A stretch of DNA of 64,000 nt from a virus (taxonomy: Duplodnaviria; Caudoviricetes): IMG/VR virus record IMGVR_UViG_3300046318_000439, positions 138,273 to 202,272 of that record; one strand, given 5' to 3'. Within the stretch, counting starts at the first letter, position 1. Each line of letters starts with the position of its first letter. A model generated the notes under the pieces. That model did no database searches. It worked only from the letters and a program-made list of their open reading frames with translations, and was not told the DNA's origin. Below are positions 1,972 through 17,462 of this stretch, one piece after another. Both the position numbers and the translations under genes were made by a program.

Positions 1972-2460
1972 TTAGTTGTCGCGTTCGTACTTAGTACGGT
2001 GGTACTTTATCTTGTGTTTGTGAGCAAAACGTGACCAAAGACCATATTCTCGTCCGTGCGCTTCTATTTCCCACGGAGTATCCCAGTAGTCCATAGAAGA
2101 AGGCATTCTTTTGCCTTTCCACACACTCATATTCTCGTCTAACTCACCCAAAGCATATTGTTTTAAGTGGACAAATTCATGAGCCAAGGTCATCATCATA
2201 TAACGCTTGGATTTATTTTTACGGATCTGAATAGTGAATTCACGAGGCTTTCCTCGCACATTATGACCAGTTACTTCGCAGTATCCATCCGCATCTTTAT
2301 CGAGTTTGCTCATAAAGTCGATGTCTACTGAGATGTGACGAGCGATTCTGTTGGATAAAAGCATACTAAGATAGAACTCACATGCTTTATGCACGGCGTT
2401 CTTGAACTTATTATCGGTTAATCCAGAAATGCCTACTAACATACGGTTTTTAACGAACAC
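1972..2460 (-). CDS. putative zinc metallopeptidase (HExxH, SprT/zincin-like)
   Basis: TLAHEFVHLKQY plus downstream PWEIEA. Confidence 0.7.
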   Translation of the reverse strand: MFVKNRMLVGISGLTDNKFKNAVHKACEFYLSMLLSNRIARHISVDIDFMSKLDKDADGYCEVTGHNVRGKPREFTIQIRKNKSKRYMMMTLAHEFVHLKQYALGELDENMSVWKGKRMPSSMDYWDTPWEIEAHGREYGLWSRFAHKHKIKYHRTKYERDN

Positions 2461-17257: not shown

Positions 17258-17265
17258 CACCATAT

Positions 17266-17381
17266 GGGTACTCTCTGTGGTGCTTGAACCCACGATAGCC
17301 CTACTCTTCCTTGGCATAAAGTATGACTGGTCGACTTTGCAACTCTATGTTTTATTTCCAAGTGTAGCTACTCAGAGAGTA
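17266..17381 (-). ncRNA. tRNA-like RNA (acceptor stem and T arm with one long central helix)
   Basis: TACTCTCT/AGAGAGTA stem, GTGG-GTTCAAGCA-CCAC T-like arm, 3' ACCCA; internal GTAGCT/GGCTAT, CTTGG/CCAAG and CATAGAG/CTTTATG helices. Confidence 0.55.
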
Positions 17382-17387
17382 TTCATA

Positions 17388-17462
17388 TGGTACACCGTAG
17401 GAGAATCGAACTCCTCTTACCTGCGTGAAAGGCGGGTGTCCTAACCGATAGACGAACGGTGC
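17388..17462 (-). tRNA. tRNA-Glu(TTC)
   Basis: GCACCGT/ACGGTGT-A-CCA, CCCGC-CTTTCAC-GCAGG. Confidence 0.9.

Follow-up and report, generated by a model that had tools for sequence, protein, structure and literature searches.

A structured element behind a phage tRNA-Glu gene

What kind of RNA lies directly behind a phage tRNA gene when it resembles part of a tRNA and has no anticodon arm? The question is raised by a ~115-nt element on the minus strand, located between tRNA-Glu(TTC) (17462-17388, minus strand; reported by ARAGORN and Rfam RF00005) and a sigma-70-type promoter-like site (17257-17229, minus strand; 11 of 12 consensus matches). This site is 3′ of the element, outside the RNA, faces the next genes and occupies the same position in relatives L001, L002, L003 and L005. 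The window analyzed here is a stretch of 64,000 nucleotides that forms the final 64 kb of the source record, which is complete at 202,272 bases and carries terminal repeats. Gene content around the element is T4-like, with a clamp loader, RegA, dCMP deaminase and two HNH endonucleases, and the closest cultured phages by clamp loader (~65% identical) are Stenotrophomonas phage DLP-6 and Methylophilales phage Melnitz. The phage also encodes a permuted tmRNA whose tag ends in ...RFALAA, and the permuted form together with this tag suggests a host that we take to be betaproteobacterial. That tmRNA gene is outside the window, at 80858-81245 (minus strand) of the full genome, and its spacer is a different stem-closed sequence of ~55 nt; a second tRNA-Glu (85143-85219) and a tRNA-Met (114083-114159) are likewise found in the full genome outside the window.

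The first-pass annotation had described a tRNA mimic in which an acceptor stem and T arm surround one long irregular helix. Each motif that it listed can be located on the minus strand, and the fold predicted from the sequence agrees with its description. With its optional outer stem, the whole element (17260-17390), which would be the precursor form, scores 115 bits against our covariance model R1, which finds one copy in the genome. The core RNA (17265-17381, ~115 nt) is the probable mature form, with predicted ends. The outer stem P0 (17384-17390 pairing with 17266-17260) starts with the CCA of tRNA-Glu (17390-17388), is variable and is missing in some members. Inside it, the acceptor-like stem P1 pairs 17373-17381 with 17277-17269, and the long arm comprises helix P2 (17367-17371 with 17299-17295), helix P3 (17358-17362 with 17314-17310) and an apical helix (17343-17349 with 17321-17315) whose loop contains the palindromic hexamer GTCGAC (17330-17335). 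The 3′ side holds a purine-rich internal-loop strand (17300-17309) consisting of GAAGA, 0-4 variable bases and GG, then a short T-like arm (17278-17293) with two firm pairs, a weak third, a purine-purine pair and the loop TTCAAGY, and finally the sequence ACCCA (17269-17265). All of these features are on the minus strand. The T-like arm and main stem of the earlier description are both present, and it is their extent that required correction: the main stem has 9 bp, its ninth pair joining G17373 to C17277 and changing from G-C to U-A in relatives, and because of this pair the T arm is reduced to 2-3 firm pairs.

The element belongs to an uncatalogued RNA family

The element is one member of an RNA family that is real, uncatalogued and carried by freshwater T4-like phages. 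Five initial relatives were retrieved through the neighboring dCMP deaminase and RegA genes; an exact 18-base pattern gave no match in viral contigs. Patterns drawn from the five relatives returned 113 and 30 viral stretches, the first set including chance matches in coding DNA, and the same patterns returned at least 120 stretches from metagenomes. A stricter filter left at least 144 distinct cores in at least 221 places, with 150 distinct contexts among the matches listed. The patterns required the words GCTACA, GAAG, GGGCY and TTCAAG, such that invariance at these positions is partly built in and distant members are missed.

An Rfam scan, which the first-pass annotation had proposed, was run on the window and the homologues and places the element in no family. 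Rfam 15 gave no match over the element at the gathering threshold or at E up to 10, reporting only tRNAs, and no match over the five homologues at E up to 5. A blastn comparison with cultured phages and plasmids yielded only tRNA-Glu matches or noise, with the element itself unmatched in cultured phages. Four matches were found among 185,579 bacterial and archaeal genomes, all on MAG contigs and three of them with 9-20 tRNA genes, and these are probably mis-binned phage DNA. Each of the four large records examined (235-383 kb) carries one copy of the element together with a T4-type gp23 capsid gene. The element is absent from G001, a complete close relative of this phage, and is therefore accessory. 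Searches of the literature, mostly of papers open without subscription and of text as opposed to model collections, gave no description of the family; the searched text of Fremin et al. 2023, a study with 10,006 models of candidate viral RNAs, makes no mention of kissing loops.

Covariation supports a three-way junction

The fold of this single sequence beats chance by a modest margin (z of -3.0 when the outer stem is included, -1.1 for the core). The comparative evidence settles the reality of the fold. Across 50 members aligned with MAFFT, 89% of cells are paired and both partners have changed in 30 of 33 pairs; the covariation score of 0.44 compares with 0.19 when shuffled and 0.05-0.12 for slid registers. 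RNAalifold recovered the same helices from a second, mostly independent set of 60 model hits, an alignment fitted to the model in which six weak hits are non-members. Covariation is seen in all five helices. Every pair of P1 changes on both sides, P2 is paired in 100% of cells (3 of 5 pairs compensated), P3 in 99% (3 of 4 pairs compensated), and both firm pairs of the T-like arm, 100% paired, switch between G-C and A-U; the apical helix is supported by the predicted fold and by covariation. On these points the first-pass annotation is supported: the module is conserved and covaries, and an acceptor-like stem is stacked on a T-like loop. This RNA is almost certainly a real structured RNA.

The consensus is a three-way junction in which the closing stem is followed by a linker of 1-2 nt, the long arm, a single C and the short arm with its TTCAAGY loop. 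The closing stem measures 8-11 bp in 128 of 150 members, and an outer extension is common and optional, giving a closing helix of at least 16 pairs in 117 of 150. The long arm consists of stacked helices and purine-rich internal loops, with conserved unpaired purine runs flanking P2 and P3. The purine-rich strand, the conservation of which is partly built in by the search patterns, is a possible partner of the T-like loop. Three further assignments were rejected. A pseudoknot between the T-like loop and the 5′ strand of P3 fits this sequence but fails in relatives, where P3 changes and the loop is constant. The purine strand was considered as a 5S rRNA loop E, for which the opposite strand is a misfit. 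A TATAAA-like word in the outer stem was considered as a late promoter, which would place the start inside a covarying stem, and the word is not conserved.

The weak z of the core, at -1.1, and a 53-codon frame that overlaps the element (17317-17156) could be taken to indicate a chance fold, a decayed tRNA gene, a site acting at the DNA level or a small protein gene. Compensated pairs occur throughout, however, and core lengths range over 86-95 nt in all three frames. Covariation refutes these explanations, and as a group they are very improbable.

A switching palindrome predicts a kissing-loop homodimer

The strongest feature of the family, and the best clue to its mode of action, was overlooked in the first-pass annotation. 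Inspection of the apical loop reveals a perfect 6-nt palindrome in each of the first 66 members (66/66). The figure for distinct arms is 108 of 112, whereas shuffles reach 25% and the adjoining stretch 2 of 112. When loops are defined by the enclosing stem alone, 53 of 57 distinct loops contain one, versus 9.1 ± 2.8 (maximum 18) across 2000 shuffles, and the apical loop was absent from every search pattern. Three of the four exceptions retain pairing through G-U. The hexamer of this phage, GTCGAC, is also that of most members, and the others include CTGCAG, TCTAGA, CCGCGG, ACCGGT, ACTAGT, CTCGAG, TCCGGA, GCCGGC, TCGCGA, GCGCGC and TGCGCA, as well as the weak types TTATAA and AACGTT. At least 13 types occur, differing from each other by 2-6 bases. 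A tree count gives 30 palindrome changes versus ~54 when shuffled, a count that rests on short sequences and for which 12 switches is the safe floor.

The central two bases of the hexamer covary, appearing as CG, GC or TA. Since adjacent bases are unable to pair within one strand, the partner must be a second molecule. A second copy of the hexamer has no recurring position nearby, such that the simplest partner is another copy of the same RNA, and a cis partner RNA bearing the same hexamer was rejected for the same reason. A DNA-level site is unlikely, given that no single protein would be expected to read all of these words, 13 different palindromes being incompatible with the site of one protein, and that this genome shows no genome-wide bias for them. 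The hexamer is predicted to be unpaired at 0.79-0.98 in this phage. Formation of a kissing-loop homodimer is, on this pattern of switching, very probable. The same argument was made by Kretsch et al. for OLE and GOLLD bridges seen by cryo-EM, where palindrome switching in OLE L9.3 and GOLLD L21a provides comparative evidence (PMC12286853).

Resemblance to tRNA is partial

The element's tRNA mimicry is partial and amounts to a rough top half of a tRNA. A cloverleaf with an anticodon arm is absent; there is a single long arm, and neither ARAGORN nor RF00005 calls the element. The canonical T arm implied by the first-pass annotation does not hold for the family, which has a T stem of 2-4 bp with a purine-purine pair beneath the loop in place of a 5-bp stem with G53-C61: the 53:61 identities are A-G in 116, A-A in 16, G-A in 11 and Watson-Crick in 7 of 150 members, for a total of 143 purine-purine pairs. 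The ACCCA end is likewise present locally and is not a family feature, as CCA is encoded in 17 of 150 members. Overlap of the outer stem with the upstream CCA is similarly a local trait, an upstream CCA being matched by TGG in 44 of the 87 cases with CCA just upstream of the element. A tie to tRNA-Glu is likewise not supported for the family, with at least 16 different tRNA types found upstream, plus another uncatalogued RNA. In sequence, the 5′ strand of P2 resembles tRNA positions 7-12 and the start of the long arm positions 8-12, and an internal loop of this arm, with AG, a variable spacer and GG, is D-loop-like. On resemblance only, the long arm could represent a D arm that gained a large insertion, with the anticodon arm lost.

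These features were weighed against the possibility of a true tRNA mimic, the strongest form of the first-pass reading and one that is cut by RNase P, CCA-tailed and aminoacylated, with an 8-bp acceptor and a four-step T arm forming a 12-bp ruler. If the stem is taken as 8 pairs measured from the junction, it opens with G-C (+1) in 66 of 150 members, is preceded by U (-1) in 64 and has CC following the discriminator in 70; CC is found at either register in 92. Host CCA-adding enzymes are able to complete a partial CCA end. Against this, CCA is rarely encoded, ~40% of members are without CC, and the stem often extends over the would-be tail. The discriminator (A in 63, U in 51, C in 33) and the stem sequence both vary freely, which indicates that no synthetase identity is kept, and the purine-purine 53:61 pair is a further point against a true mimic. 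Genes for Ro60, CCA-adding enzyme, RtcB, RNase III and SmpB were not found in this phage genome, and the absence of CCA-adding enzyme and SmpB counts further against a true mimic, which we consider unlikely.

Array context and release of the RNA

The element is a non-decoding structured RNA gene set among same-strand tRNA genes. A tRNA is found within 500 nt in 129 of 150 contexts, and nearby tRNAs are on the same strand in 525 cases versus 6 on the opposite strand. The element is within a few bases of tRNAs in L220 and L390. In eight contexts, it occupies the stretch of a permuted tmRNA gene that separates the CCA from the 5′ end, and the permuted tmRNA calls made by ARAGORN span the element in L175, L203, L301 and L349. 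The spacer of a permuted tmRNA is removed by tRNA-processing enzymes and is absent from the mature tmRNA (PMC11915505), so that the element would be cut out whole in those contexts. The element is thus probably a discrete module released by tRNA processing, and its existence as a free processed RNA seems likely from its placement.

The closing stem could instead act in cis, as a processing signal (e.g. for RNase III) that frees or protects the neighboring tRNA and leaves the RNA without a job after release. Such a spacer would account for the closing helix of at least 16 pairs, which often includes the upstream CCA, and for unrelated RNAs in the same slot that share this type of closing stem. 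It leaves unexplained the conserved interior and the switching palindrome; moreover, the outer stem is absent in many members, the neighbors vary, and arrays function without the element. A purely cis-acting spacer is accordingly improbable.

Several other RNAs occupy these arrays. The slot after tRNA-Glu is filled elsewhere by three other unrelated RNAs, each with a long stem that includes the tRNA CCA: one at L007 10680-10810, L081 9635-9765 and L082 10225-10350, a second at L004 7860-7950 and L016 8905-8995, and a third at L006 4465-4605. None of the three matches model R1. Similar closing stems with different interiors also occur in the same arrays at L291 3345-3460, L305 2995-3122, L307 4278-4366, L311 9804-9880 and L409 5495-5567, and such stems may be a processing signal that several cargo RNAs have in common. 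Another RNA of ~200 nt with a conserved 3′ part directly precedes the element in 36 of 150 contexts (e.g. L163 11040-11265, L173 3275-3500, L190 2645-2860, and in L259, L262 and L273); the copy in L190 has no significant Rfam match.

A proposed mechanism

We propose the following sequence of events. From its strand and position, the element would be co-transcribed with the tRNA array, and host tRNA-processing nucleases would then free the RNA, with the closing stem shielding its ends, a step for which the permuted tmRNA spacer is the main support. The RNA would fold into the three-way junction established by covariation, and two copies would then dimerize through the 6-nt palindrome in the apical loop of the long arm, as the sequence switching strongly suggests. 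That all of these steps hold jointly, yielding a small, stable, homodimeric RNA encoded by the phage, is moderately probable. More speculatively, the dimer would hide its sole large single-stranded loop, display two tRNA-like top halves and, without being decoded, bind and occupy a host protein that recognizes the shape of tRNA, for example a defense enzyme directed against tRNAs.

A function as decoy for host proteins that read tRNA shape, an idea already raised in the first-pass annotation, is a tentative proposal. Its most specific form is more doubtful still, namely a two-armed decoy against tRNA-attacking host defenses in which a minimal natural homodimer presents two tRNA-like top halves, buries its sole cleavable loop and, with a palindrome that switches among phages, pairs only like with like in co-infections. 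Phage tRNAs counter tRNA-cleaving defenses, and the known escape from PARIS involves a resistant working tRNA and not a decoy (PMC11455837); this escape demonstrates selective pressure and not a decoy mechanism. Patchy presence in close relatives fits an accessory, conflict-related role and argues against packaging. Speaking against the dimer or decoy are the broken palindromes of a few members (L295, L412), the weak hexamer types, a mean predicted accessibility of 0.67 and the rough tRNA likeness.

The same dimeric RNA could alternatively use its T-loop as a folding motif only and serve as a scaffold for a protein or ligand, as a catalytic RNA or as a miniature GOLLD/ROOL-like assembly. This alternative shares every step through dimerization with our preferred explanation and differs only in the final one. 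T-loops are found in many non-tRNA folds, and the conserved unpaired purine runs beside P2 and P3 would fit such a role. A tRNA-array context and kissing loops are also seen in GOLLD and ROOL (PMC12286853, PMC12990946). On the other side, the arrangement is in the order of a tRNA: the T-like arm immediately precedes the 3′ strand of a terminal stem, the 5′ strand leads into a 1-2 nt linker, and a CC tail is frequent. Rfam gives no match to a ribozyme or riboswitch family. A cage or ring is disfavored because a single symmetric loop yields only a dimer, and packaging is unlikely given a complete relative without the element. We regard a dimer with a role unrelated to tRNA as a serious possibility, if short of probable. 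Ribozymes of the twister, twister-sister, pistol and HDV-like (theta) classes were rejected: Rfam gives no match, the element departs from their motif order, and its 5′ end is paired to its 3′ end.

Comparison with known RNAs

The recognition of small non-decoding RNAs in phage tRNA arrays goes back to RNA C and RNA D of T4, and no function is known to have been assigned to them. These two RNAs (rnaC and rnaD; species 1 and 2) are stable, 139 and 119 nt in length and located in the T4-type tRNA array, and both are expressed (PMC9697503). The element is closest to them in context and closest to GOLLD, ROOL and OLE in its kissing loop. T4 RNA C carries a 3′-proximal T-loop and the palindrome AACGTT; it differs from the element in its canonical 5-bp T arm and in having an additional arm. 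AACGTT is unchanged between T4 rnaC at L287 600-755 (minus strand) and two relatives that are 81-85% identical, so the palindrome is constant across three copies without switching, whereas that of the element switches. By analogy, T4 RNA C might dimerize too. A search of the T4 tRNA region with model R1 gave no match (E up to 5).

The phage RNAs GOLLD and ROOL occur near tRNA islands, and both of them, as well as OLE, form homo-oligomers with symmetric kissing loops (PMC12286853). They differ from the element in being 550-830 nt long with many contacts, as compared to ~115 nt, one apparent six-pair contact and many more palindrome types. The bacterial Y RNA YrlA (RF02553) is of similar size, has paired ends and a T-like loop, and is present in some phages (PMC4201824). 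YrlA carries T, acceptor-like and D stem-loops within a terminal helix (PMC4201824); in contrast, the element has another order and number of arms, its T arm precedes the 3′ strand of the terminal stem, and it has no closed acceptor stem-loop between T and D arms. The YrlA model does not match the element, and TROVE/Ro60 (PF05731) is absent from this phage and from five related phage genomes (G001-G005), a result that bears on a phage-encoded Ro60 and not on one supplied by the host. The tRNA-like domain of tmRNA, including the tag-less form of phage DS6A, shares an acceptor-like stem and T arm around a long irregular helix. Unlike tmRNA, the element lacks a D-loop analogue after the acceptor, a conserved G3-U70 or CCA and a tag frame, and RF00023 and RF04321 do not match it. 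The first-pass annotation's statement that tmRNA and Y RNA signatures are missing is therefore borne out; elsewhere, the element is a passenger inside some tmRNA genes. Finally, the dimer initiation site of HIV-1 is a purine-flanked six-base palindrome in a hairpin loop, exchangeable between palindromes as in the element. The two are unrelated in sequence and biology, and the loop of the element measures 8-22 nt.

Among phage tRNA-array RNAs, this family provides unusually clear evidence for homodimer formation. It is a compact and well-sampled case with a sharp prediction that is cheap to test, namely dimerization through six loop bases, and its natural variants are built-in controls, as different palindromes are predicted not to cross-pair. 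One contig, L290, carries two copies with differing palindromes (1689-1828 and 2170-2303, minus strand) that should not cross-pair. The RNA would rank among the smallest natural RNA-only homodimers with such extensive support from sequence switching. It would also make a good target for cryo-EM or crystallography and could supply orthogonal kissing loops. Should it in addition block tRNA-attacking defenses, it would represent a new type of RNA counter-defense.

Other features of the tRNA array

Further observations concern the minus strand downstream of the element. Ahead of the HNH gene at 17159-16728, the interval 17200-17160 contains a hairpin and a TAAATA late-promoter-like word beside the ribosome-binding site, an arrangement likened to the control of T4 homing endonucleases. 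A tRNA called as Thr(TGT) at 16666-16580 has a long variable arm and a D arm of the Ser/Leu/Tyr kind, both atypical for threonine. A 5′ tRNA fragment at 16557-16536, comprising an acceptor strand and D arm, ends just before a second HNH gene (16503-16081), which is followed by an intact tRNA-Asn (16070-15997). This arrangement looks like an endonuclease insertion replacing the gene, and L205 has a similar tRNA start ahead of its tRNA-Asn. Two more structured-looking spacers without an Rfam match, at 15996-15855 and 15773-15670, flank tRNA-Tyr (15854-15774), which Rfam finds and ARAGORN misses at its default setting.
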